Notes: generated from the sequence alone by a model not told the origin. Numbered from the stretch's first letter, positions 2,481 through 50,115 are shown. The stretch: 64,000 nucleotides of DNA from Actinomycetota bacterium (GCA_036555645.1 DATBLA010000040.1:3839-67838); one strand, 5' to 3'. Made by a program: numbers and translations.

Positions 2481-3998
2481 CTATGCGGCGTAGACGTCCC
2501 GCCCGAGGCTGACCGTCAGCATCGGGCGCAGGCCGTCCAGGACGGGCGCCTCGAGGGGATCGAGGTCGTAGGCGGCGAAGTCCGCGTGCTTGCCGGGCTC
2601 CAGGCTCCCCTTCTTGTCCTCGAGGTGCGCAAGACGCGCGCTCCCGAGCGTGTACAGGCGCAGCGCCTCGTCTCGCCCGATCCGCTGGCTGGGGTCGTGA
2701 TGGGTCTCGAACGCCGCGACCCCCACGAGCGGATCGATCGTCGTGATCGGCGAGTCGGAGCCGGCCCCGAGCTCGATCCCCCGGCTCAGCAGCTCGCGGA
2801 ACCGGTTCATCGCCGCGGCGCGATCGGCGCCGAGCGCCTGCTCGTACAGGCCTCCCGGCGCGCCCCACGCCGCGTCGAAGCTCGGCTGGACGCTGATCCC
2901 GAGACCGAGCATCGCGGCCCGTTCGACCTGCTCACGGCCGGCCATCTCGAAGTGCTCCACACGGTGTCGCCGAGCCCGGAAGTGGCGGCGCTGGCGCGAG
3001 TCGAGGGCCTGGTAGACGCGCTCCCAGGTCCGGATCACCTGCTCGATCGCCGCATCGCCGATCGCGTGGATGCCCACCTGCAGGCCCGCCAGATGCCCGT
3101 CGTGGAAGAACTGAGCGAGCTCGTCGTCCTCGAAGGCGCCGCTCGGCGGCTCGTCGCGATCGGCGAACGGGTCGGAGACCCACGCGGTCCGCGCGCCGAT
3201 CGAGCCGTCGGCCGCGAGGTCCCCGCCGATCCTGCCGAGCCCGAGGTCGATCGCCGCGGAGACCTCGGTCGAGCCGAGATAGGGCACGACGTCCACCGGC
3301 ATCCGCTCCCGGTGGGCGAGCAGGATCTCCAGGTCGCGCATGCCACGCTCGGCCGGCATCGACATCTCGTGCACGCACGTGACGCCGTGGGACACGGCCA
3401 GCCCGGCCGCCGCGAGCTGATACTGCTCGACGTCGTGCGCCGACAGGTTCGATGCGAACCACGACTTGGCCGCCCGCGCCGACGCTCGTGTGAGCCTGGC
3501 CGTGGGGGCTCCATGGTCGTCGAGCTCCGGCTCCAGCGTCCGCTCCCCCGCGGCCTCCATGGCCCGAAGGGCCGCCGTGTTCACGAGGACCAGGTGTCCG
3601 TCCACACGGGCCAGGCCCAGCGGCCGCTCCGAGACGGCGTCCAGGTCCTCTAGGGACGGGACCCGCCGGTCTTCCCATCCGGACTCGTCCCAGCCGTGGA
3701 GGTAGACGGGACCCTCGTGCCGGGCGGCCACCCGCCGGGCCACCTCGAGCAGCTCGGTGGCCGACGGCGCTGCGCCGACCTCCGGCGCCTCCTGGTGGAC
3801 CCCCGTGCCGGTCAGGTGGACGTGGGTGTCGACGAAGCCCGGGACGATCGTGGCCCCCGGAAGGTCGACGACCCGGTCCGCGCCGGGCGGCTCCCCCGCG
3901 CCGACGCGTTCGATGTGGCGCCCGTCGACGAGCAACCACTCCCCCATCGGAGGAGAGGACAACGTGCGAACGCGAGAGGCTCGGTACAGGGTCCGCAT
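2481..3998 (-). CDS. Metal-dependent amidohydrolase, Amidohydro_3/YtcJ-like. The true start may be the internal Met at ~3947 (MGEWLLVDG)
   Basis: VPGFVDTHVHLTG metal-binding HxH motif and later GSDSPITT motif. Length ~490-505 aa. Paralogous to 38483..40147. The start lies only 12 nt (or 63 nt) after the RT stop on the same strand. Confidence 0.8.
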   Translation of the reverse strand: MRTLYRASRVRTLSSPPMGEWLLVDGRHIERVGAGEPPGADRVVDLPGATIVPGFVDTHVHLTGTGVHQEAPEVGAAPSATELLEVARRVAARHEGPVYLHGWDESGWEDRRVPSLEDLDAVSERPLGLARVDGHLVLVNTAALRAMEAAGERTLEPELDDHGAPTARLTRASARAAKSWFASNLSAHDVEQYQLAAAGLAVSHGVTCVHEMSMPAERGMRDLEILLAHRERMPVDVVPYLGSTEVSAAIDLGLGRIGGDLAADGSIGARTAWVSDPFADRDEPPSGAFEDDELAQFFHDGHLAGLQVGIHAIGDAAIEQVIRTWERVYQALDSRQRRHFRARRHRVEHFEMAGREQVERAAMLGLGISVQPSFDAAWGAPGGLYEQALGADRAAAMNRFRELLSRGIELGAGSDSPITTIDPLVGVAAFETHHDPSQRIGRDEALRLYTLGSARLAHLEDKKGSLEPGKHADFAAYDLDPLEAPVLDGLRPMLTVSLGRDVYAA

Positions 3999-4010: not shown

Positions 4011-4805
4011 TTAGCCCACGCGCGCTGCGGCCTCGGCACCCGAGGGCGCGAGGAGCGCACGCGCCCTCGTCCCCTCGACGACCCTCGTCTTTTGCTCGTT
4101 CGGCCGGAGGCCGAGCTCTCCCCAGACGGACCGGAGGACGTCGAGCGCCACTCGGGCTCCCCGAGGACCCTCGACGCGCATCACCACGTCGTCGACCCAG
4201 CGCAGGAAGGAGATGCGCTCGGCCTCGAGCGCCCGATCCGCGTGCGACAGGACCGCGTTCGCGAGCACCGCGGACGCATCCGGTCCGATCGGGAGCCCGC
4301 GCACGCCGGCCGATTCGAGCTCGAGCAGCAGATCCTCGATCTCGCCGGCCGCGGTGATCTCCATCCTCGACAGCGTGTGAGCGACGACCTGCGGCGAGAT
4401 CGAGGGGAAGCACCGGCGGACGTCGGCGACGGCCAGGCTCGCGTCACCTCCGACGAGGCGGGCCAGCCCTCGGGCGAACTCCCGGCGCTCGAGACGCCAG
4501 GGCCGGAGCCGCAGCTCGCCCGCCGGAGGCTGCTCGAGGTCGAGCCGGTTGGCCGCGACGCTCGGCGAGAGGGAACGCTCGATCGAGGCCGCCGCCTCAC
4601 CGACGAGCCGCGCGTACGACTGCCGGGTCGCCGGGTCGAGCGCCGTGAGGAGACGCACCCCCCTGCGATGGCGCACGGCGAACACACGGGGACGGAGGGG
4701 CGTTGCGAGCACGGGTCTCCCCTGTCTCGGGGGAGGCGCGGCGAGCTCGGAGGTTGTACCGCATCCGGCCGCCGCGGGGAATCGGCCGCCCTGAGCTCGC
4801 AACAT
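4011..4805 (-). CDS. Compact stand-alone reverse transcriptase (RT fingers/palm domain only, ~265 aa)
   Basis: All RT motifs are readable: motif 1/2 RVFAVRHRRGVRLLTALDPATRQSYARLV, motif A/3 LAVADVRRCFPSISPQVV, motif B' GLPIGPDASAVLANAVLSHADRAL, motif C FLRWVDDVVM, motif D/E GLRPNEQKTRVV. Start at ATG (MLRAQGG) at 4805. The upstream in-frame extension would overlap the divergent lrp start. Confidence 0.75.
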   Translation of the reverse strand: MLRAQGGRFPAAAGCGTTSELAAPPPRQGRPVLATPLRPRVFAVRHRRGVRLLTALDPATRQSYARLVGEAAASIERSLSPSVAANRLDLEQPPAGELRLRPWRLERREFARGLARLVGGDASLAVADVRRCFPSISPQVVAHTLSRMEITAAGEIEDLLLELESAGVRGLPIGPDASAVLANAVLSHADRALEAERISFLRWVDDVVMRVEGPRGARVALDVLRSVWGELGLRPNEQKTRVVEGTRARALLAPSGAEAAARVG

Positions 4806-4827
4806 CGGCCGGCTGCGGACCCGTACG

Positions 4828-5292
4828 ATGAACGGCGTGCCATCGACGGGACCGGACGAGCGCGATCTCGAGATCATCGCCGCGCTCCAGGAGGACGCCA
4901 GGGCGACCTATACCGACATCGGGCGGCGGGTGGGCCTGTCACCGTCATCGGTCCACGAGCGCATCCGCCGGCTCGAACGAAACGGCACGATTCGGGGATA
5001 TCGGGCGGTCGTCGAGCCCGAGGCCGTCGGGTTGTTCGTCACGGCGCTCATCGCGGCATCCCCGCTGGATCCGACCCAACCCGACGACCTGCCCGATCGC
5101 GTGCACGACTTCCCGGAGGTCGTCGACTGTCTCAGCGTGGCCGGCGAGGCCAACTACATCCTCAAGGTGAGGACGCGGACGACCGCGGAGCTCGAGGACC
5201 TCATCCGCCGGCTCCGCGAGAAGGGTGAGGTGCACACGCGCACGACCGTCGTGCTCTCGATCCCGTTCGAGAACCGCCCGCTCGTGCCCTAG
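4828..5292 (+). CDS. lrp: Lrp/AsnC-family transcriptional regulator
   Basis: 154 aa. N-terminal HTH (LEIIAALQEDARATYTDIGRRVGLSPSSVHERIRRLE) plus C-terminal RAM/AsnC_trans domain. Divergent from the RT gene with ~20 bp between the starts. Confidence 0.85.
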   Translation: MNGVPSTGPDERDLEIIAALQEDARATYTDIGRRVGLSPSSVHERIRRLERNGTIRGYRAVVEPEAVGLFVTALIAASPLDPTQPDDLPDRVHDFPEVVDCLSVAGEANYILKVRTRTTAELEDLIRRLREKGEVHTRTTVVLSIPFENRPLVP

Positions 5293-34521: not shown

Positions 34522-35469
34522 TCACCCGACCGAGGTCGATCCGGGAGCGGGCCTCGGCAGGAGGCCGGCCGCCTCGACGACCCGGGGAATCGCCTCCTCG
34601 TGGTTGATCGTCATGAGGTGGACGCCCCGGATCCCCGGGATCCCGCGCACCTGCTCCACGAGCTCGACGGCGATGCGGATGCCCTCCTCACGCTGTCGCG
34701 CCGCCTCCACGCCGCCCATCCGCTCGATCACCCAGTCGGGGACGTCGACCCCGGGCACCTGGTCCCGGAGGTAGCGAGCGCCGCGCTCGGAGCTCGGGAC
34801 GAAGATCCCGGCGAGCACCCACACGCGATCGAGCAATCCGAGCTCGCCCGACCGGGCCATGAACAATCGCAACTTCTCCACGTTGAAGCAGATCTGCGTC
34901 TGGATGAACTCGGCTCCCGCCTCGATCTTCATCCCCAGGCGCATCGGGCGGAACTCCAGCGGCGGCGCGAACGGGTTCTCGACCGCCCCGATGAGGTACC
35001 GCGGCGCGTCGTCGAGCTGTCGGCCGGACAGGTAGGTGCCCTGATCCCGCATGATCTTCGCGATCCGAAGCAGGTGGACGGCGTCGATGTCGTAGATCGG
35101 CTTGGCCTCCGGGTGGTCGCCGACCGACACGTCGTCTCCGGTCATGCACACGACGTTGCGTACCCCCAGGGCGGCGGCGCCGAGGAGGTCGGCCTGGAGC
35201 GCGAGCCGGTTCCGATCCCGGCACGCGAGCTGCATGATGGGCTCGAGGCCGTCCTCGAGCAGGAGCCGGGCGGCCGCGAGCGGCGCGATGTGGGTGTGAG
35301 CAGCGCTGTTGTCCGTGCAGTTGACCGCGTCGACGCTCCCGCGCAGCGTCTCCGCCAGTCCGGCGATCGAGCCGGGATCGGCCGAGTCGCTCGTCTGGAG
35401 CTCCGCGGTGACGACGAAGGCGCCGTCGAGCAAGCGCCGGTGGAGCTCGCTCCAGGGCGCCGGACTCAC
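34522..35469 (-). CDS. metF: 5,10-methylenetetrahydrofolate reductase (MetF family)
   Basis: MTHFR TIM-barrel motifs (VDAVNCTDNSAAHTHIAPLAAA, VRNVVCMTGDD, TQICFNVEKL). 315 aa. Confidence 0.8.
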   Translation of the reverse strand: MSPAPWSELHRRLLDGAFVVTAELQTSDSADPGSIAGLAETLRGSVDAVNCTDNSAAHTHIAPLAAARLLLEDGLEPIMQLACRDRNRLALQADLLGAAALGVRNVVCMTGDDVSVGDHPEAKPIYDIDAVHLLRIAKIMRDQGTYLSGRQLDDAPRYLIGAVENPFAPPLEFRPMRLGMKIEAGAEFIQTQICFNVEKLRLFMARSGELGLLDRVWVLAGIFVPSSERGARYLRDQVPGVDVPDWVIERMGGVEAARQREEGIRIAVELVEQVRGIPGIRGVHLMTINHEEAIPRVVEAAGLLPRPAPGSTSVG

Positions 35470-35494
35470 GCCCGCGCCGAGTCTCGCGGATCGC

Positions 35495-35923
35495 TCACGC
35501 GCGCGGGGAGGGCTCGGCGCCTGCCCAGCCGCCTGGCACCCACCGGTCGCGGCCCGTCACCAGGTTCTCCCACGATCCGGTGCCCTGGAGCCGCCAGTCC
35601 GTCGGGGGCTCGACGTGCTCCATGTGATCGCGCCACAGCGGGAGCCGGCGCGATCCCTCCCACGCCTGCACCCAGACGCAGCGCATCTCCGGCACCACCT
35701 CGCAGCTCCCGTCCTGGAGCGTGCCACCGCACGGACCGTTGCGGAGGTTCTTCGGGCAGCGCATCGGGCAGGTCAGCCCCGTCGAGTGCAGGATGCACTG
35801 GCCGCACATCCGGCAGTCCCAGATCGCCTCCTTCGTCCGGCGCTCGAGGACGACGAGCGCCTTGCGCACACCCCTCGGCGCCGGCGCCGTCGTCGGCGGT
35901 CTCCGGTCGAGCGTGCGAGCCAT
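35495..35923 (-). CDS. MetV-like Cys-rich protein (MTHFR C-terminal-domain family)
   Basis: CRMCGQCILHSTGLTCPMRCPKNLRNGPCGG...C matches the zinc-ribbon-like MTHFR_C/MetV pattern. Immediately upstream of metF, as in the acetogen metV-metF arrangement. Confidence 0.6.
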   Translation of the reverse strand: MARTLDRRPPTTAPAPRGVRKALVVLERRTKEAIWDCRMCGQCILHSTGLTCPMRCPKNLRNGPCGGTLQDGSCEVVPEMRCVWVQAWEGSRRLPLWRDHMEHVEPPTDWRLQGTGSWENLVTGRDRWVPGGWAGAEPSPRA

Positions 35924-35947
35924 GGCTCCGGCGGCCGTGCGGCGGCC

Positions 35948-37129
35948 TCAGCCCTGCCGCAGGTCCTGCGCCGGAACCTCCTTCCGGGGATCGAGGAACG
36001 GGATCGTCGCCGTCGTGACCGACAACGGGCCGTTCTCCGACTCCACGTCCAGCGGCGTGCCGGGGGCGGCGAGCTCGATCGGGACCCACGCGTACCCGAT
36101 GTTCCGCTCGAGACGGGGCGACCAGACGGCGTCGGTCACCTTGCCGATCTGCCGGCCACCCTGCACCACGGGCCAGAACCACGTGAGCTCGGCCCTGAGC
36201 TCGTCTCCCGGCCACTCGATGCCGACGAGCTTGCGGTCGACGCCGCGAGCCCGCAGCGCCTCGAGCGCCGCCTTGCCGATGTAGTCCTGCGGCTGGTCCT
36301 CGACGAGGTGCTCGAGGCCGGTGATGTGCAATGCCGTGTCCTCGTGGGTCATGTCGGAGTTGTAGTTCATGATCCCGGCCTCGATGCGGCGCGCCTCGAT
36401 CGGCGCGACCGGCCGGATCGCGTGCTCCTCGCCGGCCTCGAAGATCGCGTTCCACAGATCGTCGCCACGGGTGGGGTCGAGGAGGTTCACCTCGAACCCC
36501 TGGACGGCGGTCCATCCGGTCCGGCTGATGAGGACCGGGATGTCCTTGATGTCGAACCAGTCGCACCAGTAGTACTTCAGGTCGTAGATCGCCGCGCCGA
36601 CGAGCTTCTCGAGCGTTGCGGCCGCCTTCGCGCCCTGCACCTGCATCGGGTACGCGTCCGGGTAGGAGACCTCGACGTCCATCCCCGCCTGCGTGGCGAC
36701 GCCGAGCGCGTACAGGCCGGCGTCCGAGTCCGCCAGCTGCATCCACCAGCGGTTCTCGTCGACGTGGAGCAGGACCGGGTCGTTGAGGATCCCACCGTCG
36801 GGCGCCGTCACGATCATGTACTTGCCCTGCTTGACCTGGCACGTCGTCAGGTCACGACACGTGATCATGTCGACGAGCCGGTCGGCGTCGGCCCCGGAGA
36901 TCTCCACCGTGCGCTCGACCGCCACGTCCCACACCGTGACGTCGTTCAGCAGGGCCCAGTACTCCGTGATCGGGTCGTCGTAATAGGCAGGCAGGAACAT
37001 GTGGTTGTAGACGTCGTACGCCGTGCAGCCCGAGCGGCGCGTCGCGTCGAAGAACGGCGACCGCCGGTACCAGGGACCGAAATAGATCGTCGCGCTCTGC
37101 TCGAGCATCTCCTGTCGCTCGTTCACCAT
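35948..37129 (-). CDS. GcvT-family aminomethyltransferase paralog 1 (THF-dependent demethylase-like)
   Basis: GcvT fold blocks: VWDVAVERTVEISGADADRLVDMITCRDL, GKYMIVTAPDGGILNDPVLL, ISRTGWTAVQGFEV, C-terminal barrel. 393 aa. Confidence 0.75.
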   Translation of the reverse strand: MVNERQEMLEQSATIYFGPWYRRSPFFDATRRSGCTAYDVYNHMFLPAYYDDPITEYWALLNDVTVWDVAVERTVEISGADADRLVDMITCRDLTTCQVKQGKYMIVTAPDGGILNDPVLLHVDENRWWMQLADSDAGLYALGVATQAGMDVEVSYPDAYPMQVQGAKAAATLEKLVGAAIYDLKYYWCDWFDIKDIPVLISRTGWTAVQGFEVNLLDPTRGDDLWNAIFEAGEEHAIRPVAPIEARRIEAGIMNYNSDMTHEDTALHITGLEHLVEDQPQDYIGKAALEALRARGVDRKLVGIEWPGDELRAELTWFWPVVQGGRQIGKVTDAVWSPRLERNIGYAWVPIELAAPGTPLDVESENGPLSVTTATIPFLDPRKEVPAQDLRQG

Positions 37130-37216
37130 GTCGTGACGACACCCCCCCGGGCCGGCGGTCCGGCCCGCAGGATTGAATCATCGTTCAACGTCGGGAGCGG
37201 CGACAACTCGCGACGC

Positions 37217-38368
37217 TCAGGCGACCGGGATCTCCTTGTTGGGATCGACGAAGGGCATCTCGACCACGGTGGCGGTTCGGGATCCCCACTCCGTCTCGAC
37301 GTCCACGGTCTGGCCCGGCTCGGAGCGATCGCTCGGCAGCCACGCGAACCCGATGTTGCGCGCCAGGCGCGGCGAGTAGATCGCCGACGTCACCGACCCG
37401 ATCCGCGAGCCGTCCTGGACGACCGGCCACTTCGTCGCGTTCAGCTCCGGGAACGGGTCGCCGTCGAGCTCGACCCCGTTGATCCTGCGGGAGACGCCCC
37501 GGCCCCGGATCTCGCGCAGCGCCCCGAGCGAGATGCTCGCCTCGTCCGGCAGCGACCAGTCGATGAGACGCTCGAGACCCATCTCGAGCGGGTTGTTCTC
37601 ATAGGTCATGTCGGCGCCCCAGTTGAAGATCGCGCCCTCGATCCGGCGGATGTCGCTCGGCCCCGTCGGCTTGATGTCGAACTCGCGGCCGGCCTCCATG
37701 ATGGCCTCGTAGACCTCGGTGCCCTTCGTCGTGTCGGTGAGGTAGACCTCGTACCCGATCTCCGACGTCCATCCGGTGCGCGTGACCACGACGGGCGCTC
37801 CGGCGATCGTCGTCTCGGTCCAGTGGTAGTAGCGCAGGTCCAGGATCGAATCGCCGAGCAGCTTGACCATGAGCGGCTTCGACTTCGGGCCCTGCACCTG
37901 GAGCGGCGCGACGTCGGCCTCCCGGATCGTCACGTCGAGGTCGGGGTAGGCGTTGCGGAGGCCCCGGGCGAACAGGAGCGCGTCCGAGGAGGCGAGCGCG
38001 AACCAGAACGTGTTCTCGTCCATCCGCGTGAGGACCGGGTCGTTGAGGATCCCACCGTCGCGGTCGCAGATGAGGACGTACTTCGCCTGCCCGACCGCGC
38101 AGGCCGAGAGATCGCGCGGGGTCATGAGCTGCGCGAATCGCAGGCCGTCCGGACCGCCGATCTCCAGGCACCGCTCGACCGAGACGTCCCACAGGGTGAC
38201 GCCGTTCAGGAGCGCGTCGAACTCGGCCTCGAACGTGTCGAACCGGATCGGGAAGTACATGTGGTTGTAGACGGTGAAGCCCTTCGGCCCATACTTCTGT
38301 GTGGCCTCGAAGTACGGCGTGCGGCGATTGCGCGCGCCGCGCTGCACCAGGCTCATGTCGAACGACAT
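37217..38368 (-). CDS. GcvT-family aminomethyltransferase paralog 2. Start taken at MSFDMSLVQ; the ORF-track start is 38440
   Basis: LWDVSVERCLEIGGPDGLRFAQLMTPRDL, AKYVLICDRDGGILNDPVL, VTRTGWTSEIGYEVYL. Clearly paralogous to 35948..37129. Confidence 0.75.
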   Translation of the reverse strand: MSFDMSLVQRGARNRRTPYFEATQKYGPKGFTVYNHMYFPIRFDTFEAEFDALLNGVTLWDVSVERCLEIGGPDGLRFAQLMTPRDLSACAVGQAKYVLICDRDGGILNDPVLTRMDENTFWFALASSDALLFARGLRNAYPDLDVTIREADVAPLQVQGPKSKPLMVKLLGDSILDLRYYHWTETTIAGAPVVVTRTGWTSEIGYEVYLTDTTKGTEVYEAIMEAGREFDIKPTGPSDIRRIEGAIFNWGADMTYENNPLEMGLERLIDWSLPDEASISLGALREIRGRGVSRRINGVELDGDPFPELNATKWPVVQDGSRIGSVTSAIYSPRLARNIGFAWLPSDRSEPGQTVDVETEWGSRTATVVEMPFVDPNKEIPVA

Positions 38369-38482
38369 CGGAGGTCCTCCTCGCCGGTCCAGGGATTCGG
38401 CATCGATCCGGACGGATCGCCGTATGGTGTCGCCGGCCACGACGCCGAGACAAGGAGCCCTCCTGACCGATGGTCAGGAGCG

Positions 38483-40147
38483 CTACCCGAACACCCGCTC
38501 GCCCTCGACGTACGTCTGGTCGACGCGCGCGCGATGGATCTCCTCGGCCGGATGGGCGAACAGGTTCCGGTCGATGACCGCGAGATCGGCCATCTTGCCG
38601 GGCTCGATCGTCCCGGTCATGTCGTCGAGATGGTTCACGAAGGCGGCGTTGATCGTGAACGCCGCCAGGGCCGTGGCGAGGTCGACGCGTTCGGCCGGCA
38701 GGAACGGCTCGTTGGTCCCGCCCCCGTAGAGATACGAGTCGGGTGCCATCCGGTTCACGGCGACGTGCATCTCCTGGATCGGATCGGGACTCGAGACCGA
38801 CCAGTCGCTGCCGAACGCCAGCACGGCCCCGGCCCGCACGAGGCTGCCGAACGGGTACTGCCACTCCGTCCGCTCGGGACCGAGGAACGGGATCGTGAGG
38901 TGCTGCATCTGCCCCTCGTTCACGGCCCACAGGGGCTGTCCGTTGGCGACGACGCCGAGCGCACGAAAGCGCGGGACGTCGTCGGGGTGCACGACCTGGA
39001 TGTGCGCGATGTGGTGGCGCAGGTCGTTCATCCCGTTCGCCCTGCGCGCCGCCTCGAACGCGTCGAGGGCCTCGCGGATGCCCCGATCCCCGATCGCGTG
39101 GACGTGCACCTGAAAGCCCTCGGCGTCCAGGCGTGTGACGTACGCCTTCAGGCGCTCGGGATCGACGAACGACGTCCCGCGGTTGTCGGTGGCCTCACCG
39201 CTCGCGTCGAGATAGGGCTCGAGCATGGCGGCGGTGAAGTTCTCCACGACGCCGTCCTGCATGATCTTCACGCTCGGGGCGGCGAATCGCCCGACCCTCC
39301 CTCGCTCGCGCAGCCGCAGAAGCTGATCGATCTGCTCGTCGCCGCGACCCCGGTCCCACCACAGCGCGGCCACGACGCGCGCGGTGAGCGCTCCGCTGCC
39401 GGCGAACCGGACGTAGGCCTCGAACGTCGGGTCCCCAGCGTCCTCCCCCACATTCGCGTCCTGCCATGCGGTGATGCCGAACCCGTGCAGATGCTCCTGC
39501 GCGACTCGCAATCCCTCGATGAAGTCCTCGGTCGAGTCGCCGGGCATGTGGCGCTCGACGAGGTCAGCCGCCCCCTCGTGGAGCGTCCCCGCCGGCTCGC
39601 CGTCGGACGTGCGGACGATCCACCCGTCGTCCGGATCGGGCGTCGAGGTGCTCACCCCCGCGAGCTCGAGCGCCCTCGTGTTCACCCAGACGCTGTGCCC
39701 GTCCCGGCTCTCCAGGTAGACCGGCCGGTCGGGCACGAGGTCGTCGAGGATCTCCTTCGGCGGGTTGCCTCCCGGGAAGACGTCCATCGACCAGCCCCCG
39801 CCGGCGATCCACGTGGCATCGGGATGATCGGCGGCGTACGCGGCGACGATCCTCCGGTAGTCGTCGACCGAATATGCCTCGGACAGACTGCAGCGCAACA
39901 TCTCCAGGCCGCTCGAGGGAGGATGCGCGTGGGCGTCCTGGAACCCGGGCACGAGCATGCGACCGGCGAGGTCGACCACGTCGGACGAGGGCCCGACCAG
40001 CGAGCGCACCTCCTCGTCGGTCCCCACCTGCACGATCCGGCCGTCCCGAACGGCGACGGCCTCTGCCCAGGGCATCTCCGTCCGTACCGTGTACACGGCG
40101 CCGTTCACGAAGGCGAGGTCGGCGGTCTCGGTCATGGCGCTCGTCAT
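38483..40147 (-). CDS. Metal-dependent amidohydrolase, Amidohydro_3/YtcJ-like (paralog of 2481..3998)
   Basis: VPGFQDAHAHP, HVHAIGDRGI, AFGSDWSV, EPGKMADLAVIDRNLF. ~554 aa from MTSAMTETADLAFVNGAVY. The ORF-track start 40492 is an extension. Confidence 0.8.
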   Translation of the reverse strand: MTSAMTETADLAFVNGAVYTVRTEMPWAEAVAVRDGRIVQVGTDEEVRSLVGPSSDVVDLAGRMLVPGFQDAHAHPPSSGLEMLRCSLSEAYSVDDYRRIVAAYAADHPDATWIAGGGWSMDVFPGGNPPKEILDDLVPDRPVYLESRDGHSVWVNTRALELAGVSTSTPDPDDGWIVRTSDGEPAGTLHEGAADLVERHMPGDSTEDFIEGLRVAQEHLHGFGITAWQDANVGEDAGDPTFEAYVRFAGSGALTARVVAALWWDRGRGDEQIDQLLRLRERGRVGRFAAPSVKIMQDGVVENFTAAMLEPYLDASGEATDNRGTSFVDPERLKAYVTRLDAEGFQVHVHAIGDRGIREALDAFEAARRANGMNDLRHHIAHIQVVHPDDVPRFRALGVVANGQPLWAVNEGQMQHLTIPFLGPERTEWQYPFGSLVRAGAVLAFGSDWSVSSPDPIQEMHVAVNRMAPDSYLYGGGTNEPFLPAERVDLATALAAFTINAAFVNHLDDMTGTIEPGKMADLAVIDRNLFAHPAEEIHRARVDQTYVEGERVFG

Positions 40148-40157
40148 CGGCTCCCGG

Positions 40158-41702
40158 GTGGAGCGCCGAGCATATCGAGGCCCCACCCGACTATGCTCCC
40201 CCGACCACCCTCGATCGGAGGACCTCGTCCGGCGCATCATCGCTCTCTTCGGCATCACGGTCGCGGCCGCGACGCTGGCCACGCCCGTCGAGCGAGCGAC
40301 GGCGGGTGCTGGGCCCGTCCAGCTCACGGTGATGACGTTCAACATCTGGTACGGCGCGTCGCAGACCCACGGGCTGGACGAGGTCGTCGAGGCGATCGAG
40401 CGGGCGGGCGCCGACGTCGTCGGGATGCAGGAGCCGTACACGCGGCTGCGGCGGATCGCGAACGCGCTCGGGTTCCACGCCTCGCCGCGCATGCACGTGA
40501 TCTCGCGATTCCCGATCCTCGAGCCGTCCGGGTCCGATGGGGACTGGGCGCTCCTGCTGCTCGCTCCCGGTCAGGTGGCGGCGATCATGAACACGCATCT
40601 GTCGGCCACCCCGTACACGCCGTACCGCATCGTGAACCGGGGGTTCGACCGGCCGACGATCCTCGAGCAGGAACGTCGGGCCCGGATGCGCCGCATCACG
40701 AAGGAGCTCGAGCGCCTGCGGCCGATCCTCGACGCGGGCATCCCGACGTTCTTCACCGGCGACTTCAACTCGCCCTCGTACCGTGACTGGACGCGACCGG
40801 CCGTGCAGGCCCGAGGGCTCCCCTACCCGGTTCGCTGGCCGGCGTCGCTCGCGATGGAGGAGGCCGGCTTCGTTGACTCCTACCGAGCCGCGCATCCGGA
40901 CCCCGTGGCCGATCCCGGCTTCACGTGGTCTCCCGGCTACCCGGCGCCGTTCGTGTACCCGTGGGACGTCTTCGACCGGATCGACTTCGTGTGGGCGGCC
41001 GGTCCCGTCGAGGTGATCTCGAGCTCGGTCGTCGGTGAGTCGCGCGCGAACGCCGACATCGTCGTCCGCCCCTACCCGACCGATCACCGGGGCGTGGCCT
41101 CGACGTTCGAACTGACGCCCGCGCCGGCCCCCGTGTTCGCCGTCGCCGAGGACGAGCGCGCGCGGCTGGGGAACCCCCTCAACGTGCGGTTCCACGCGCC
41201 CGGAGGTGCGGGCGAGCGCGTCTCGCTCCTCGACGACGCGGGCGCCCTCGTCTCCGACCGGCCGACCGGCGCCCAGGACGGGACGGTCACGTTCGACACC
41301 GCGGGTCTGGAGCAGGGTGACTACGAGGTCGTGCTCGAGGACGGGACGGGCGCGGACCTCGCCCGCGACGGCGTCGTCCTCGTCGACGGGGATCAGCCCC
41401 CGACCCTCACGCTCGGTGATCGCACGCTCCGCGACGATCAGCCGCTCGAGGTGACCTGGTCCTACGGGCCGGGGAACCGGTACGACTGGCTCGCGATCTT
41501 CCGGGCGGGCGAGCCCACCAGGGGCGGGACGATCCTGCACTGGCGGTACGTCGACGGTGCCGTCTCCGGCGTCTCCAGGTTCGGAGGGACCACGCGCGGC
41601 GAAGGCGACTGGCCGCTCGAGCCGGGACGCTACGAGCTCAGGCTGTGCCTGGACGACAGCTACCGCTGTCGGGTGGAACAGGCCTTCCGGGTGGTCGCCT
41701 AG
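40158..41702 (+). CDS. Secreted endonuclease/exonuclease/phosphatase (EEP) family protein with Tat-like signal and C-terminal beta-rich domain
   Basis: GTG start gives MERRAYRGPTRLCSPDHPRSEDLVRRIIALFGITVAAATLATPVERATA (RR plus hydrophobic h-region). EEP motifs LTVMTFNIWYG, VVGMQE, FFTGDFNS, DRIDFVW. Confidence 0.7.
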   Translation: MERRAYRGPTRLCSPDHPRSEDLVRRIIALFGITVAAATLATPVERATAGAGPVQLTVMTFNIWYGASQTHGLDEVVEAIERAGADVVGMQEPYTRLRRIANALGFHASPRMHVISRFPILEPSGSDGDWALLLLAPGQVAAIMNTHLSATPYTPYRIVNRGFDRPTILEQERRARMRRITKELERLRPILDAGIPTFFTGDFNSPSYRDWTRPAVQARGLPYPVRWPASLAMEEAGFVDSYRAAHPDPVADPGFTWSPGYPAPFVYPWDVFDRIDFVWAAGPVEVISSSVVGESRANADIVVRPYPTDHRGVASTFELTPAPAPVFAVAEDERARLGNPLNVRFHAPGGAGERVSLLDDAGALVSDRPTGAQDGTVTFDTAGLEQGDYEVVLEDGTGADLARDGVVLVDGDQPPTLTLGDRTLRDDQPLEVTWSYGPGNRYDWLAIFRAGEPTRGGTILHWRYVDGAVSGVSRFGGTTRGEGDWPLEPGRYELRLCLDDSYRCRVEQAFRVVA

Positions 41703-41719: not shown

Positions 41720-42499
41720 TCAGGCCCCGGTCGGGGGCTTGCGCGCGACGAGGATCATGCTGTTCGAGTCGTTGTCCGTGGTCAGCGGAGCGCCGTCGAA
41801 CCCGCCGTAGGCCGCCACCTCGTCGAATCCTGCGCGCTCCAGGAGCTCGACCATGTCGGTGAGCGAGTACACGCGGTAGGACAGATCCGCCGTCTCGCTC
41901 CCATCCGGGGACACGATCGTCAGGTGAGTCTTGATGCGACCCCGGAGGAGATCGAACTCCTTCTCGTTGGCGACGACCGTTCCGTCGTCGTGGCGATTGA
42001 CGAACGTGGACTTCCAGTGCCGCATGGCGAGATCGCGATTGATGAGATGCATGAACACGACGCCTCCCGGCCGCACGCACCCCCACATCCCCCTCAGCAC
42101 GAGCGCGTCCTCCTCCTTCGTGTCGAGGAACCCGAAGGACGTCGTCATGCTGATGACCAGGTCGAACTCGTCACCGAACGGGATCTCGCGGACGTCCGCC
42201 CGGGTGAACGTCACGCTCACCCCCTGCCTTCGGGCGTTCTCGTCCGCGATCCGGAGCAGCGGCTCGCTGAGATCGAGCCCGGCGACGTGGTGACCCCGCG
42301 ACGCCAGGAGGATCGCGTGGCGTCCCTGCCCGCAGCACAGATCGAGGATCCGGCTTCGGGCCCCGATCGCCGTCAGGCGCTCGATCCCGTCGACCTCGAT
42401 GCGGTCGTGCTCGGGCGTGAAGTACATCCCGTAGGCCCGGAGGTAGCGTTCGTCGAACGCATCCACGAACCACGGTCCCTGCGCCTCGTGCTGGGTCAC
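41720..42499 (-). CDS. Class I SAM-dependent methyltransferase
   Basis: Motif I ILDLCCGQGRHAILLASRGHHVAGLDLS, motif II DEFDLVIS, motif III PGGVVFM. GTG start preceded by GGAAGAGGA. 259 aa. Confidence 0.75.
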   Translation of the reverse strand: MTQHEAQGPWFVDAFDERYLRAYGMYFTPEHDRIEVDGIERLTAIGARSRILDLCCGQGRHAILLASRGHHVAGLDLSEPLLRIADENARRQGVSVTFTRADVREIPFGDEFDLVISMTTSFGFLDTKEEDALVLRGMWGCVRPGGVVFMHLINRDLAMRHWKSTFVNRHDDGTVVANEKEFDLLRGRIKTHLTIVSPDGSETADLSYRVYSLTDMVELLERAGFDEVAAYGGFDGAPLTTDNDSNSMILVARKPPTGA

Positions 42500-42572
42500 G
42501 CTCGTCCTCTTCCCGCTCGGGCGTGCGTCCCCGGAACGGCTCAGCCGGTCCCCCGACACGCGCCGGAACCGC

Positions 42573-43349
42573 TCACCACACGACCCACGGAGGCTTGCCG
42601 CTCGCCCACATGTCCTCGAGCTGCTCCTTCTCCTTGAAGGTGTCCATCCCCATCCAGAACCCGTCGTACTTGTGGGCGAACAGCTCCTTGCGCGCGATGA
42701 GCCGATCGAAGGGAGGTCCCACGAGGTCCTCTCCCTCGCGCAGGAACTCGAAGATCTCCTGTCGGAAGACGTACCACCCCGCGTTGATCCGCACGTCCGC
42801 CTCGCTGACCGGATCGATCCGGGACACGATGCCTTCCTCGCCGGCATCGACGACGTGGAACGTGAGCGACGGCCGAACGGAGACGAAGTTGGCGATCGTG
42901 CCCCTGTCGACGACCTCGGCGATGTACCGGCTGAGATCGAGGTCGGTCAGGCCGTCGGTGTAGTTCGCGAGGAACACCTCGTCGTCGGCGACGTACGGCT
43001 GCACGGCCCGGAGCCGCTCGCCGACGCTCGAGGTCACCCCCGAGTCGACGAAGCTGATCCTCCAGTCGTGGATGTCGCTGCCGAGGAGCTCCACCTGGCC
43101 CTCGCCGCTCAACACGAAGTCGTTGGACACGGCCTCGTTGTACCGAAGGAAGTACTCCTTGATGACGTCGGCCCGGTAGCCGAGGCACAGGATGAAGTCC
43201 TTGTGCCCGAAGGAGGCGTAGTACTTCATCACGTGCCACAGGATCGGCCGGTAGCCGATGTGGACCATCGGCTTGGGGACGTTCTCCGAGAAGTCGCGGA
43301 GCCTGGCCCCCGTGCCACCGCAGAACAGAACGACCTTGATCGCAGCCAC
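42573..43349 (-). CDS. rfbF: Glucose-1-phosphate cytidylyltransferase (CDP-glucose pyrophosphorylase)
   Basis: KVVLFCGGTGARLRDFSENVPKPMVHIGYRPILWHVMKYYASFGHKDFILCLGY; the RfbF/DdhA signature throughout. 258 aa. Confidence 0.85.
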   Translation of the reverse strand: MAAIKVVLFCGGTGARLRDFSENVPKPMVHIGYRPILWHVMKYYASFGHKDFILCLGYRADVIKEYFLRYNEAVSNDFVLSGEGQVELLGSDIHDWRISFVDSGVTSSVGERLRAVQPYVADDEVFLANYTDGLTDLDLSRYIAEVVDRGTIANFVSVRPSLTFHVVDAGEEGIVSRIDPVSEADVRINAGWYVFRQEIFEFLREGEDLVGPPFDRLIARKELFAHKYDGFWMGMDTFKEKEQLEDMWASGKPPWVVW

Positions 43350-47201: not shown

Positions 47202-49235
47202 CTAGGCGGCCCGGCCCAGGTACCGGCGCCCGCTGAGGAACGCGAGCCCGTACAGCGCCGCCACGACCACGAGCAGGGATCGGTACCCGGACACGAGGGA
47301 GGCGTACTCGAGGGTGCCGCCGACCATGGCGCCGAGGAGGTTCGCGCCGAACGCCACCGTCGGGCGCTCGACGATCTGGAAGCGCTCGGCGAACACGAGG
47401 TTCGCGCAGAAGACCGGGGCGAACGCGAGCGCCACCGCGGCCGCGAACCTCGGCCCGACGGAGAGCTCGAGCAGCGCGCTCGCCGGGATCGCGTACGCGA
47501 CCGCGAGCGCCCCGGCGAGGATCGCGTACAGCGCCACGGGGTTCGGCCGAGCGCGCTTGGCCACCTCGATCGCGAGCAGGACCGACAGGAGGATGCCGGC
47601 GAACACGAGGGCGTTCACGAACCAGGTCGTCCCGAACAGGAGCGCGAACTGCACGACGCTCTTCGTCTCGAGCAGCAGGAAGGCCGCCCCCATGAAGAAC
47701 AGATCGAGGCAGGAGCGCATCGCCCGGAACGGGCCCGACACGATCCGAACCGCGACGGCCGACGCCGCGAGGATGAGGGCGACCGTGAGCAGATACAGCG
47801 ACGGCACCGCGGCCTCGCGCAGGTACACGAACGGGCGGTCGTCGGTCGCCGGCTCGACGGGGGTGCCGGACGCGGAGGTCCACAGGCTCGGGCACGCGAT
47901 TCCGTCCGGCTCGAGGCCGATCGTGATGAGGGCGAGGAAGCCGACCTGGCGCGTGGAGTCGAAGCACGGACGGTGCCCGTAGACCTCGTCGACCGTGTTC
48001 GCGAGGCGATCGGCGAGCCACGGGTAGCGGTAGTAGTTGTACATCGCGAAGACGCCGCCCGGCGCCAGGTGCTCGCGCGCCTCCTCCATCGCCTCGCGCG
48101 TGAAGAGATAGCTCTCGAGCCGAACCGAGGACTGTCCGGACACGAGCGTGAGCGAGTCGGTGAGGGCGAAGACGATGAGGTCGTATCGCGCATCGGTTCG
48201 GTGCAGGAACGCCCGGCCGTCGTCCACGACGACGCGGACCCGCGGATCGTCGTACGGACGCTCGGGATGCAGATCGCGTCCCAGCTCGGCCAGGCGCGGG
48301 TCGATCTCGACGGCGTCCACGTGCGAGGCCCCCGCCGCGAGCGCGATCGCCACGTCCGTCCCGGTGCCGGCGCCGACGACGAGCACGCGCTCGGGTGGCA
48401 CGACCATCCGTTCGTACGGGACGAAGTACGTCGGCTCCGCTTCGCGTCGCGCCTCGAGCGTCGTGATCGTCTGATGCGGGATGCCGTTCACGTTCACGAG
48501 CACGCCCGCGTCGTCGGCCTGCCACGTGATCCGGTAGTACGGCGACCAGGCGGCTTCGCCGAACGCGTCGCCTGCGAACGTGAAGGCGAACAGCCCGAGG
48601 GCGATCGCGTGGACGAGGGAGAACCTCGGCCACAGCAGCGTCGCGAAGGCTCCGACGATGACGATGCCCCACACGGCCGGAGGCGCCCCCAGGAGGGAGA
48701 GCGCTCCGAACGTGGCGACGCCGGTCACGCTCCCGAGGATGTCGAGGCGATAGGCCTCGAGCGCCGGGAACCGCTCGAACAGGCTCGCGACGCCCTGGGC
48801 CACGGCGGCCATCGTCGCCGCGACCGCCGCGAACACGACCGGCATCGAGACCCAGATCGGGAGCCCGCTCGCCCGGTAGCTCCCGAAGAAGATCACGTCG
48901 CTCCCCGTCCGGTCGATCGTCACGGGGAAGAACGCGGACAGCGCCATGACGCCGGCGAGCAGGAGGGGCGACCAGCGGAACCAGCCCGAGCGGCCGCCCC
49001 GCAGGAAGCCGATCCCGATGCCGAGGAAGGAGCCGAGCAGGACGAAGTTCGAGAAGAACGAGAGGTAGGCGACGTTCGCGCCGAGCCAGCGGATGAGGAC
49101 GAGCTCGACGAAGAGCATGAGGAAGCTGGCCAGGAACAGCCGCCGCCGGTCGCCCGCCCGGCCGGCTTCGATCCCCGGTTCGGGGACCGCCCCCCCGGCG
49201 GTGTCCTCGGCGCGCGCGAGATCGCTCAGTCGCAT
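47202..49235 (-). CDS. Polytopic membrane protein with embedded spermidine-synthase-like (polyamine aminopropyltransferase fold) domain
   Basis: Many TMs at both ends. Central VLVVGAGTGTDVAIALAAGASHVDAVEIDPRLAELGR...YDLIVFALTD class I MTase / spermidine-synthase-like block. 677 aa from MRLSDLARAE. The ORF-track entry runs to 50099. Confidence 0.7.
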   Translation of the reverse strand: MRLSDLARAEDTAGGAVPEPGIEAGRAGDRRRLFLASFLMLFVELVLIRWLGANVAYLSFFSNFVLLGSFLGIGIGFLRGGRSGWFRWSPLLLAGVMALSAFFPVTIDRTGSDVIFFGSYRASGLPIWVSMPVVFAAVAATMAAVAQGVASLFERFPALEAYRLDILGSVTGVATFGALSLLGAPPAVWGIVIVGAFATLLWPRFSLVHAIALGLFAFTFAGDAFGEAAWSPYYRITWQADDAGVLVNVNGIPHQTITTLEARREAEPTYFVPYERMVVPPERVLVVGAGTGTDVAIALAAGASHVDAVEIDPRLAELGRDLHPERPYDDPRVRVVVDDGRAFLHRTDARYDLIVFALTDSLTLVSGQSSVRLESYLFTREAMEEAREHLAPGGVFAMYNYYRYPWLADRLANTVDEVYGHRPCFDSTRQVGFLALITIGLEPDGIACPSLWTSASGTPVEPATDDRPFVYLREAAVPSLYLLTVALILAASAVAVRIVSGPFRAMRSCLDLFFMGAAFLLLETKSVVQFALLFGTTWFVNALVFAGILLSVLLAIEVAKRARPNPVALYAILAGALAVAYAIPASALLELSVGPRFAAAVALAFAPVFCANLVFAERFQIVERPTVAFGANLLGAMVGGTLEYASLVSGYRSLLVVVAALYGLAFLSGRRYLGRAA

Positions 49236-49328
49236 CGCCAGGAAGACCAACGACGCCCGGCCGGCGATCCTTGAGCCCGGATCGAACGCAGGGGCTAATT
49301 TGGGGCTCCCAAAGCAGAGGAGCGCCCC

Positions 49329-49910
49329 GTGGGCAACGTCGTCATGTACGGCTCGGTATCGGTGGACGGCTTTATCGCGGACGAGAACGACCAGCCCGGC
49401 CCATTGTTCGACTGGTTGTCCAACGGTGACGTCCCGTTGGACGAGACCGGGCAGATCAAGGTGTCGCAGGTGTCCTACGAGTACACGCGGGCGTACTGGG
49501 ACCAGATCGGAGTGACGATCGTCGGCCGCCGCGTCTTCGACATGACGGACGGCTGGGGCGGCACGCCGCCGAGCGGGATCGACCACGTCGTCGTCGTGTC
49601 GCACCGGCCGGCGCCCGAGGGCTGGCGCCGCGAGGCGCCGTTTCAGTTCGTCGATGGCGTCGAGGCGGCCGTGGCCAAAGCGCAGGAGCTTGCGGGTGAC
49701 CGCGTGGTCGAGGTCGCCGCCGGCGACGTCGGTGGCCAGGTGCTCGCCGCGGGCCTGATCGACGAGGTGCGCATGGACGTCGCACCCGTCGTGTTCGGGT
49801 CCGGCACGCGCTACTTCGGGTCGGTCCACGCGCAACACCTGCTGGAGGATCCTGACGAGGTGATTCAGGGCGACCGGGTGCTTCACCTGCGCTACCGGGT
49901 GCGCCGTTGA
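49329..49910 (+). CDS. RibD C-terminal-domain / dihydrofolate-reductase-like reductase
   Basis: MGNVVMYGSVSVDGFIADEN...GRRVFD...VVVVSH...VVEVAAGDVGGQVLAAGLIDEVRMDVAPVVFGSG; the RibD_C pattern. 193 aa. Confidence 0.75.
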   Translation: MGNVVMYGSVSVDGFIADENDQPGPLFDWLSNGDVPLDETGQIKVSQVSYEYTRAYWDQIGVTIVGRRVFDMTDGWGGTPPSGIDHVVVVSHRPAPEGWRREAPFQFVDGVEAAVAKAQELAGDRVVEVAAGDVGGQVLAAGLIDEVRMDVAPVVFGSGTRYFGSVHAQHLLEDPDEVIQGDRVLHLRYRVRR

Positions 49911-50056
49911 TCGATCCAAGCGGGTACGCGAAGAACATCCACTGCGACCGGGAGACGAGATCGTCTTCCCGGTGGTTGGGAACGCTGAGGGGATTTCGCC
50001 TGCCGGGACGACCGCTCGACTCGACAAGGGTCGGGTGTTGGCGCTCGTCGTTGGTT

Positions 50057-50115
50057 GTGTCGGAGGGGGGATGTGAACCCCCACGGCCCATAAGGCCACT
50101 AGGCCCTCAACCTAG
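50057..50115 (-). repeat. 59-bp duplicate of the 3' half of tRNA-Leu(GAG) (anticodon stem to acceptor end). Putative attachment-site scar
   Basis: gtgtcggaggggggatGtgaacccccacggcccataaggccactaggccctcaacctag is identical except for one base to 52074..52132. Lacks the 5' acceptor/D-arm half, so it is not a functional tRNA. Confidence 0.7.

Follow-up and report, generated by a model that had tools for sequence, protein, structure and literature searches.

A 64,000-nt stretch of DNA from an Actinomycetota bacterium (GCA_036555645.1, DATBLA010000040.1:3839-67838), hereafter the window, encodes two stand-alone paralogous proteins of the GcvT fold, GcvT1 and GcvT2, in tandem and next to the methylenetetrahydrofolate reductase (MTHFR) MetF with its small Cys-rich partner MetV. 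Their sequences place the two paralogs in an uncharacterised sister group of the dimethylsulfoniopropionate (DMSP) demethylase DmdA; curated criteria assign them neither to the glycine-cleavage T proteins (GcvT), nor to the aryl O-demethylases LigM/DesA, nor to DmdA itself. The combination of a tetrahydrofolate (THF)-dependent one-carbon (C1) transferase with an MTHFR is known. New is a tandem pair of the DmdA sister group with an iron-sulfur (Fe-S) MetVF in uncultured soil Actinomycetota, a lineage that is probably aerobic because it encodes Rieske oxygenases. A sequence-only reading of this DNA had described a demethylation-type catabolic cluster at this place; we confirm its observation, and its interpretation is partly supported.

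Gene content of the block

A Pfam search gives five minus-strand genes in 34522-40147. The sequence-only reading had counted six; strand, coordinates and families stand, and the EEP gene lies on the plus strand:

34522-35469, minus strand: metF, PF02219 (MTHFR) 106 bits, 315 aa
35495-35923, minus strand: metV-like, PF12225 (MTHFR C-terminal/DUF5981) 90.5 bits, 142 aa
35948-37129, minus strand: GcvT1, GCV_T and GCV_T_C, 393 aa
37217-38368, minus strand: GcvT2, GCV_T and GCV_T_C, 383 aa
38483-40147, minus strand: Amidohydro_3 (YtcJ-like) metal hydrolase, PF07969 329 bits, 554 aa
~40236-41702, plus strand: EEP, PF03372 69 bits, divergent from the amidohydrolase gene

The open reading frame (ORF) of GcvT2 extends to 38440, and the homolog-backed start MSFDMS gives the 383 aa found in its homologs, one less than the ~384 aa read earlier; the 393 aa of GcvT1 are unchanged. 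Neither protein is clearly longer than true GcvT, as had been supposed, with solved GcvTs spanning 358-401 aa. The amidohydrolase ORF extends to 40492, and its 554-aa start agrees with orthologs of 554-559 aa. From metF to the amidohydrolase gene the intergenic gaps are 25, 24, 87 and 114 nt, and 22 nt separate the block from the downstream htrA. An identical JGI soil-metagenome contig of 6.7 kb spans GcvT1 to TrmI.

Family assignment of GcvT1 and GcvT2

The paralogs are 46% identical to each other. Their scores on curated profile models are as follows:

DmdA NF009133 (equivalog): GcvT2 338.6 bits, GcvT1 302.3 bits, cut-off 410
Tdm: GcvT2 173.7, GcvT1 172.4, cut-off 1100
GcvT PRK00389: GcvT2 172.5, GcvT1 152.1, cut-off 300
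GcvT TIGR00528: GcvT2 138.9, GcvT1 126.9, cut-off 235.85
SoxA: GcvT2 106.4, GcvT1 68.9, cut-off 1164
DesA NF047633 / LigM NF047885: GcvT2 at most 59, GcvT1 at most 47 (43-59 bits overall; GcvT1 on the LigM model 47 bits), cut-offs 800 / 580

For both paralogs the DmdA model outscores the GcvT models about twofold. As a control, the metagenomic protein L160 scores 436.8 bits on the DmdA model, which is above its cut-off. The top PDB match for both is DmdA of Pelagibacter ubique, 3tfh (1.6e-70 for GcvT2 and 2.1e-63 for GcvT1), followed by GcvTs at 1e-44 or weaker and by LigM at ~1e-6 to 1e-8. The AlphaFold2 model of GcvT2 has a mean confidence (pLDDT) of 95.2. A Foldseek search with this model again returns 3tfh first, with a template-modelling (TM) score of 0.91 and a root-mean-square deviation (rmsd) of 1.8 Å; GcvTs reach a TM of ~0.85, and LigM a TM of 0.70 with an rmsd of ~5 Å. 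Sequence, profile and predicted structure thus agree on DmdA as the nearest characterised relative, and the two stand-alone GcvT-fold paralogs of the sequence-only reading are borne out by both the Pfam and the fold matches.

Neighbour-joining trees, which are rough and carry no support values, were built from representatives of 50%-identity clusters and metagenomic relatives. They place both paralogs in a clade of their own beside DmdA that is shared with other proteins of uncultured Actinomycetota and Gemmatimonadota. In the nearest clusters, every named member belongs to one of these two uncultured groups and is annotated generically as aminomethyltransferase. More than 7,900 of the 8,000 candidates scored match GcvT2 at E<=1e-20, and the matches listed belong to uncultured Actinomycetota.

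Aryl O-demethylation of the LigM/DesA type, which had been among the suggested activities, is very unlikely. It is rejected on the profile scores, on length (383 and 393 aa against ~450-470 aa) and on the fold. It is also highly improbable that one or both paralogs are true glycine-cleavage T proteins whose gcvH and gcvP are encoded elsewhere. Automated annotations do call them aminomethyltransferase or GcvT, and the fold resemblance to GcvTs is considerable. Against this, both fall well short of the TIGR00528 and PRK00389 cut-offs, the DmdA model is preferred, and a Trp stands in place of the GcvT Tyr of the GYTGE motif. Neither gcvH nor gcvP is found among the annotated ORFs of the window or in the 20-kb neighbourhoods of relatives.

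As for sequence motifs, the 'NDP' Asp is retained by both paralogs, and so is the Trp within 'RTGW(T/S)...G(Y/F)E'. In DmdA this Trp is a DMSP-specific contact, and a Glu and a Tyr of the same motif contact the folate (W171, E178 and Y180; Hernandez et al., PMC7487153). GcvT and dimethylglycine dehydrogenase (DMGDH) have Tyr or Phe at the Trp position. The GcvT2 motif 'RTGWTSEIGYEVY' retains Trp, Glu and Tyr ('GWTSEIGYEVY'; ortholog pattern 'GWTSEvGYEVY'). In GcvT1 the DmdA-type Trp is present in 'RTGWTAVQGFEVN' and the Tyr of the folate motif is replaced by Asn. A basal part of the clade (loci L152, L164 and L088, and L174 by homology) has the GcvT-like 'GYTGE' instead; we refer to such members as Tyr-type and to those like the window proteins as Trp-type.

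The MetV-MetF pair

A MetF catalytic domain adjoined by a PF12225 Cys-rich subunit, the make-up of MetVF-type reductases, is found here. By sequence, MetF is thus the predicted catalytic subunit of an MTHFR that associates with MetV (type 3, acetogen-like). Among NCBIfam models it fits the MTHFR half of PRK08645 best (199.6 bits), its similarity to solved canonical MTHFRs is weak (E ~3e-9), and it has no match to S6MTHFR (7XG9) at E<=1e-5. The 142-aa MetV-like protein, correctly recognised as Cys-rich in the sequence-only reading, contains eight Cys residues (C37, C40, C43, C52, C56, C65, C74, C82) that are all invariant in 39 orthologs and are compatible with two [4Fe-4S] clusters. A sequence search gave no solved relative of it, and its listed homologs all belong to uncultured Actinomycetota. 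The gap between metV and metF is 25 nt in the window, and the two genes overlap by 4 nt in L002 and L172. As a separate observation, one metagenomic product of 216 aa (P0429) combines GCV_T_C and PF12225; it represents a fusion of GcvT1 with MetV, or else an artefact of a frameshift.

Conservation of the block in related genomes

A scan of a genome collection gave 80 species-level metagenome-assembled genome (MAG) loci from 333 matches, all from uncultured soil Actinomycetota. The conserved order is ABC-F, amidohydrolase, GcvT2, GcvT1, then MetV and MetF where present, HtrA, TtuA and TrmI. This arrangement is no chance product, because the order amidohydrolase - GcvT2 - GcvT1 recurs in at least 60 of the species-level MAG loci, 33 of them with MetV-MetF. 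Where the site after the paralog pair was compared, MetV-MetF follows in 33 of 64 related loci. Two loci (L012 and L168) have the order GcvT2 - MetV - MetF - GcvT1-like, so the adjacency of GcvT and MetVF outlasts rearrangement. A co-oriented THF C1-transferase and MTHFR are found side by side in the 33 loci and stay together where L012 and L168 are rearranged. In an unrelated lineage of four more distant metagenomic loci (L152, L157, L170 and L164), an MTHFR of another type adjoins the clade member, an independent recurrence.

GcvT2 is the most conserved and slowest-evolving protein of the block. Among the orthologs of L002-L083, its median identity is 82% in a subclade with 68% for ABC-F, 70% for TtuA, 66% for TrmI and 52% for HtrA. 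Such slowness is unusual for a supposedly accessory catabolic enzyme. The constraint is strong whether or not an oxygenase gene adjoins. In ~18 related loci, about a quarter, a Rieske/Ring_hydroxyl_A oxygenase of ~400 aa is encoded between the amidohydrolase and GcvT2 (L003:8406-9614 is an example), sometimes with a DUF7144 protein alongside. Of the NCBIfam models, that of the glycine betaine monooxygenase GbcA fits it best, with 183 bits (cut-off 670). In L070 (6579-7916) the oxygenase accompanies a GcvT2-like gene in a translocated setting beside ileS; it is found also in L172 (3466-4671), whose MetV is just 68% identical.

The association might also be a coincidence, with MetVF as the housekeeping biosynthetic MTHFR of the lineage and the adjacency a product of frozen gene order and not of a dedicated cluster; the GcvT-like enzymes may still be C1 transferases in that case. 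The block lies between ABC-F and the htrA-ttuA-trmI-mpa-dop-pup-proteasome genes, and this order is conserved across the lineage. MetVF is missing here in 31 of the 64 loci, no second MTHFR was noticed in the window, and no promoter, terminator or riboswitch signal bounds an operon. These facts suit a coincidence, which we nevertheless hold to be improbable. In the rearranged L012 and L168, MetV-MetF still adjoins a GcvT paralog, and in L152 and L164 an MTHFR of another type has independently come to lie beside a clade member. The gaps of 24-25 nt suggest co-transcription. Moreover, the gain or loss of Rieske, NmrA-like and EEP genes has affected other parts of the block and has never interrupted the run of GcvT2, GcvT1 and MetVF.

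As to regulatory signals, Rfam at the gathering threshold yields just a tRNA across the window, and an upstream riboswitch or other RNA regulator is accordingly rejected. The promoter scan gave no promoter, and the terminator scan gave one terminator-like site, inside GcvT2 and on the wrong strand; both scans are uninformative in DNA of 70% G+C.

Gene neighbourhoods of distant clade members

More distant members of the clade occur in several kinds of neighbourhood. In loci of the L091 type, from Gemmatimonadota and others, a Tyr-type protein resembling Tdm and GcvT (Tdm model 290.7 bits, GcvT model 227.9 bits) and two PF01593 flavoproteins precede a Trp-type clade member, frequently with a DDAH-like gene and an amino-acid permease alongside. 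The PF01593 neighbours were considered as amine oxidases and found to be CrtI/CrtO-like flavoproteins. In L085, three major facilitator superfamily (MFS) transporters, a PF01593 flavoprotein gene overlapping the clade member, DUF179 and a second clade member are found together. L138 has on one strand a PotA-like ABC ATPase, a class-III aminotransferase and a GbcA-like Rieske oxygenase (59% identical); the locus also has a clade member 61% identical to GcvT2, with an amidohydrolase and an M20 peptidase close by. The ABC ATPases beside the Trp-type relatives of L138, L161 and L165 were considered as ProV-like betaine importers and dropped, having PotA/TOBE-like C-termini and no CBS domains.

Tyr-type members have their own surroundings. 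L088 reads permease, iron-containing alcohol dehydrogenase, aldehyde dehydrogenase, a 333-aa protein, a Tyr-type clade member whose gene overlaps that of a DMGDH-like protein, and the beta and alpha subunits of an electron-transfer flavoprotein. In L152, L157, L170, L164 and the cultured Phytoactinopolyspora mesophila (L174), soxBDA(G), a DAO-family gene and a Tyr-type clade member stand with a true OpuA system, whose ProV scores 346.7 bits (cut-off 326.6) and whose OpuAC binding protein scores 192.7 bits. The pair of DAO and Tyr-type clade member may be a split dimethylglycine oxidase. True OpuA/ProV neighbours occur just with this subclade and with the bona fide DmdA L160, which has a CBS-type ATPase as neighbour. 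Of the solved structures, that of S6MTHFR (7xg9/7xlf), an enzyme that oxidises 5-methyl-THF, is nearest to the MTHFR of L152, at 5e-32; the next match is at 7e-10.

Two side observations concern these loci. The 333-aa protein (L088:8963-9964) belongs to no Pfam family and has homologs in L120, L122, L123, L126 and L127; two separate lineages, with 39-40% identity, have it together with an APC-type permease and a clade member. The stretches L152:2381-16163 and L174:1-11188 (GCA_010122465.1, WLZY01000002.1, Phytoactinopolyspora mesophila) are betaine-type catabolic islands.

Such surroundings bring a second explanation into view, namely that the paralogs trap C1 units. They would capture the iminium, carbinolamine or formaldehyde released by N-demethylation through a separately encoded oxygenase or flavoprotein, with 5,10-methylene-THF as the product. 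As partner, either the GbcA-like Rieske oxygenase of related genomes or an enzyme encoded elsewhere in this genome would serve, and MetVF would run reductively towards methionine. The GbcA-like gene lies directly upstream of GcvT2 in the ~18 loci mentioned above, and a like association is seen in L070 and in the distant L138 and L161. The gene of an FAD enzyme overlaps or abuts that of the clade member in L085, L088, L152 and L174. The Tyr-type pair resembling a split dimethylglycine oxidase stands beside soxBDAG and opuA, and the catalytic Asp of 'NDP' is kept as in GcvT and dimethylglycine oxidase. Trapping fits the Tyr-type subclade best. For the window proteins we regard it as possible but rather unlikely. 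The window and about three quarters of the related loci have no adjoining oxygenase or oxidase, yet GcvT2 is conserved at ~82% identity; the annotated ORFs of the window include no oxidase or oxygenase, and a tblastn search of the window for a Rieske gene was negative. No C1-trapping GcvT domain comes as near to the proteins as DmdA does, and their motif has the DmdA-type Trp. The DMGDH of L088 has a GcvT domain of its own, and methylene-THF requires no dedicated MTHFR. In the L091-type loci the Trp-type protein occurs together with a separate Tdm/GcvT-like Tyr-type protein, so a division of labour is suggested in which the Trp-type protein does something besides C1 trapping.

Proposed function

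Across the clade the gene context consistently suggests that C1 units are taken from N-methylated amines or onium compounds and passed to folate. How this would happen in the window we can propose only tentatively. The reading that we favour, at a little below even confidence, is direct methyl transfer in the manner of DmdA, in which THF receives the methyl group of an onium or N-methyl compound and MetVF deals with the resulting 5-methyl-THF. As THF-dependent methyltransferases, GcvT1 and GcvT2 would need no further partner. Their donor would be a small onium-type or N-methylated molecule, such as an osmolyte-like quaternary ammonium or sulfonium compound, and N5 of THF would be the direct acceptor. 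MetV-MetF, as an iron-sulfur-type MTHFR, would link 5-methyl-THF to 5,10-methylene-THF and hence to C1 oxidation or assimilation. Alternatively, methionine synthase could use 5-methyl-THF directly, and relatives without MetVF at the site would need nothing more. The two paralogs may each have a donor of their own or may form a heteromer. Gene content, family placement, fold, conservation and neighbourhoods are observed; we infer from them the chemistry, the substrate class and the direction in which MetVF runs. Direct transfer is favoured because of the relationship to DmdA and the conserved Trp, because the pair is free-standing and strongly constrained where no oxygenase adjoins, and because MTHFR adjacency recurs.

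A number of observations weigh against this proposal. Both paralogs remain below the curated DmdA cut-off, their identity to DmdA is just 32-34% (32% for GcvT1 with the P. ubique enzyme), and the rough neighbour-joining trees put them in an uncharacterised clade outside that of DmdA. GcvT1 orthologs ('GWTAvpGFEvN') keep the Trp and the Glu, and at least 90% of 69 sequences have Asn for the folate-contacting Tyr; this exchange could mean altered cofactor handling or the role of a non-catalytic partner. Where MetV-MetF is missing at the site, GcvT1 is followed directly by htrA, and MetVF is thus not an obligatory partner. The block sits inside a conserved housekeeping backbone, so that the adjacency may partly be inherited order. 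Type 3 MTHFRs, the MetVF-like Fe-S enzymes, are regarded as reductive (PMC11868366). The S6MTHFR-like enzyme of L152 retains just three (P49, F215 and F269) of the seven checked among those emphasised by Yu et al., with L48, R78, C219 and P268 altered, and it goes with the Tyr-type subclade, not with the Trp-type of the window. Finally, clade members recurrently adjoin oxidative C1-releasing enzymes, that is GbcA-like Rieske oxygenases, DAO, DMGDH/Sox and PF01593 flavoproteins, and these neighbours fit a C1-trapping role equally well. The demethylation module of the sequence-only reading holds as far as DmdA is the nearest characterised relative and MetVF is linked to the pair; it has to be qualified in that MetVF is optional and the synteny may be inertia.

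Comparison with known systems

DmdA, represented by SAR11_0246 of P. ubique (PDB 3TFH) and SPO1913 of Ruegeria pomeroyi, is a proven direct methyltransferase (PMC5395565). It shares with the paralogs the stand-alone three-domain GcvT fold of ~370-390 aa and the 'NDP' and 'GW(S/T)...G(Y/F)E' motifs with the DMSP-contacting Trp. DmdA is found in marine Alphaproteobacteria, whereas the paralogs are from soil Actinomycetota and form a tandem pair. Unlike DmdA, they have no dmdB, dmdC, dmdD or acuI as neighbours; MetVF, and in relatives the GbcA-like oxygenase, are found instead.

The coupling of a THF-dependent demethylase to an MTHFR that oxidises 5-methyl-THF is established for LigM/DesA, Dmt and CmuAB, and these define the type 4 MTHFRs (PMC11868366). 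The modules are ligM-metF-ligH of Sphingobium SYK-6, which includes S6MTHFR, dmt-metF of Rhizorhabdus and cmuAB-metF of Methylorubrum (Yu et al. 2025, PMC11868366). The likeness to the window is a THF methyltransferase, of the GcvT fold or another, encoded beside an MTHFR, an arrangement to which the sequence-only reading had appealed. The differences lie in both partners: the MTHFR, which recycles 5-methyl-THF in the known modules, is type 4 there and the Fe-S-partnered MetVF of type 3 here, and the demethylase is LigM/DesA-like in the LigM modules but DmdA-like here.

Another parallel is offered by the DmdA/GcvT-like paralogs of SAR11, which we compared by their published description. According to Sun et al. 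2011 (PMC3160333), SAR11_1265 lies beside metF, and SAR11_1303 beside opuA and a sarcosine oxidase. These authors proposed that the proteins take part in oxidising methyl groups via THF, and a literature search found no later functional study of SAR11_1265 or SAR11_1303. Like the clade members, they adjoin metF or genes of betaine transport and oxidation; they belong to a different phylum, and the SAR11 metF has no MetV partner.

The MetV-MetF pair itself resembles that of acetogens (Clostridium ljungdahlii, Thermoanaerobacter kivui and Acetobacterium woodii; type II/III), in which MetF and a small Cys-rich PF12225 MetV are likewise encoded side by side. The acetogen MetV has ~200 aa, compared with 142 aa here. 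During growth on methyl substrates, the MetVF-type enzymes of acetogens work in the methyl-oxidising direction. The metVF genes are required for growth on C1 compounds (PMC10472528). Unlike in acetogens, no Hdr, Mvh or Rnf partners are found nearby, and the partner is of the GcvT fold and not a corrinoid methyltransferase.

The C1-trapping GcvT domains of dimethylglycine oxidase/DMGDH, SoxA and Tdm have the same fold and the same THF site as the clade. They work in a fusion or complex with an oxidising module, and methylene-THF is their product, whereas the window proteins are free-standing. They also have Tyr or Phe in the motif where the window proteins have Trp, and the Tdm (~173 bits) and SoxA (69-106 bits) scores of the latter are low. 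For a GcvT-fold betaine:THF methyltransferase, no report was found in the literature.

Other genes of the window

The amidohydrolase is encoded upstream of GcvT2 in essentially all related loci, and its best solved relatives, 3igh and 3icj, are both uncharacterised hydrolases. A single independent recurrence of the association is known, in L138, where a 56%-identical amidohydrolase lies near the clade member and the Rieske gene. Its membership in the pathway, which the sequence-only reading had considered, is plausible but weakly supported. The same suggestion for the EEP protein is not supported; its gene is on the opposite strand and is present in just ~8 of the related loci.

The window has a G+C content of ~70%. 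One flank of the block holds Lnt, FtsH, CysS, a HelY-like helicase, PafBC-like WYL proteins, the proteasome, Dop/PafA, Mpa, TrmI, TtuA and HtrA. The other holds EEP, an S-adenosylmethionine (SAM)-dependent methyltransferase, an NTP-transferase, ABC-F, HAD, a GH1 enzyme, a peptide ABC system, TIM and GAPDH. The SAM-dependent methyltransferase (~260 aa) and the NTP-transferase are encoded at 41720-43349 on the minus strand, between EEP and ABC-F. None of the 80 related loci has a counterpart, and the segment looks like a window-specific insertion. The methyltransferase (41720-42502) has a weak match to glycine/sarcosine N-methyltransferase (45 bits); a link to the methyltransferase beside the clade member in L085 was rejected, with no similarity at E<=1e-5.

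Farther away, a second Amidohydro_3 gene is found at 2481-3998 (minus strand, 505 aa, 257 bits), 34 kb from that of the block. It flanks, together with a divergent small ORF (4828-5292), a 288-aa ORF with a reverse-transcriptase domain (4011-4877, minus strand; RVT_1, 1e-8). The best PADLOC matches of this ORF are the defence-associated reverse transcriptases Drt8 (7.6e-22), RT_UG33 and RT_UG23, and it covers just the N-terminal half of these profiles of ~490 positions. A 969-aa ORF at 47202-50111 (minus strand) has a spermidine-synthase-like methyltransferase domain in its C-terminal third.

Biological implications

Going beyond the window, the Trp-type clade might be a new family of oxygen- and corrinoid-independent THF-dependent N-demethylases, or of sulfonium demethylases, coupled in this lineage to an oxidative Fe-S MetVF. 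The substrates would be quaternary ammonium-type osmolytes or other N-methylated amines, and the family would be widespread among uncultured soil Actinomycetota and Gemmatimonadota. This wider proposal is a doubtful one. If true, it would add a fourth demethylation route beside those of betaine-homocysteine methyltransferase (BHMT), the Rieske enzymes of the GbcAB type and the corrinoid enzymes of the MttB type. If the paralogs trap C1 units instead, free-standing GcvT-fold proteins would serve Rieske N-demethylases, which is also undescribed and less far-reaching.

If the direct-transfer reading is true, many soil-metagenome proteins annotated as 'GcvT', a large and highly conserved group, bear the wrong label, and the concept of a demethylase with its MTHFR would extend from type 4 enzymes to the Fe-S MetVF, outside strict anaerobes. 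The proteins would then mark a folate-linked route by which methyl groups are harvested from N-methylated or onium compounds, and this would bear on osmolyte turnover and on the C1 and methionine supply of abundant uncultured soil bacteria.

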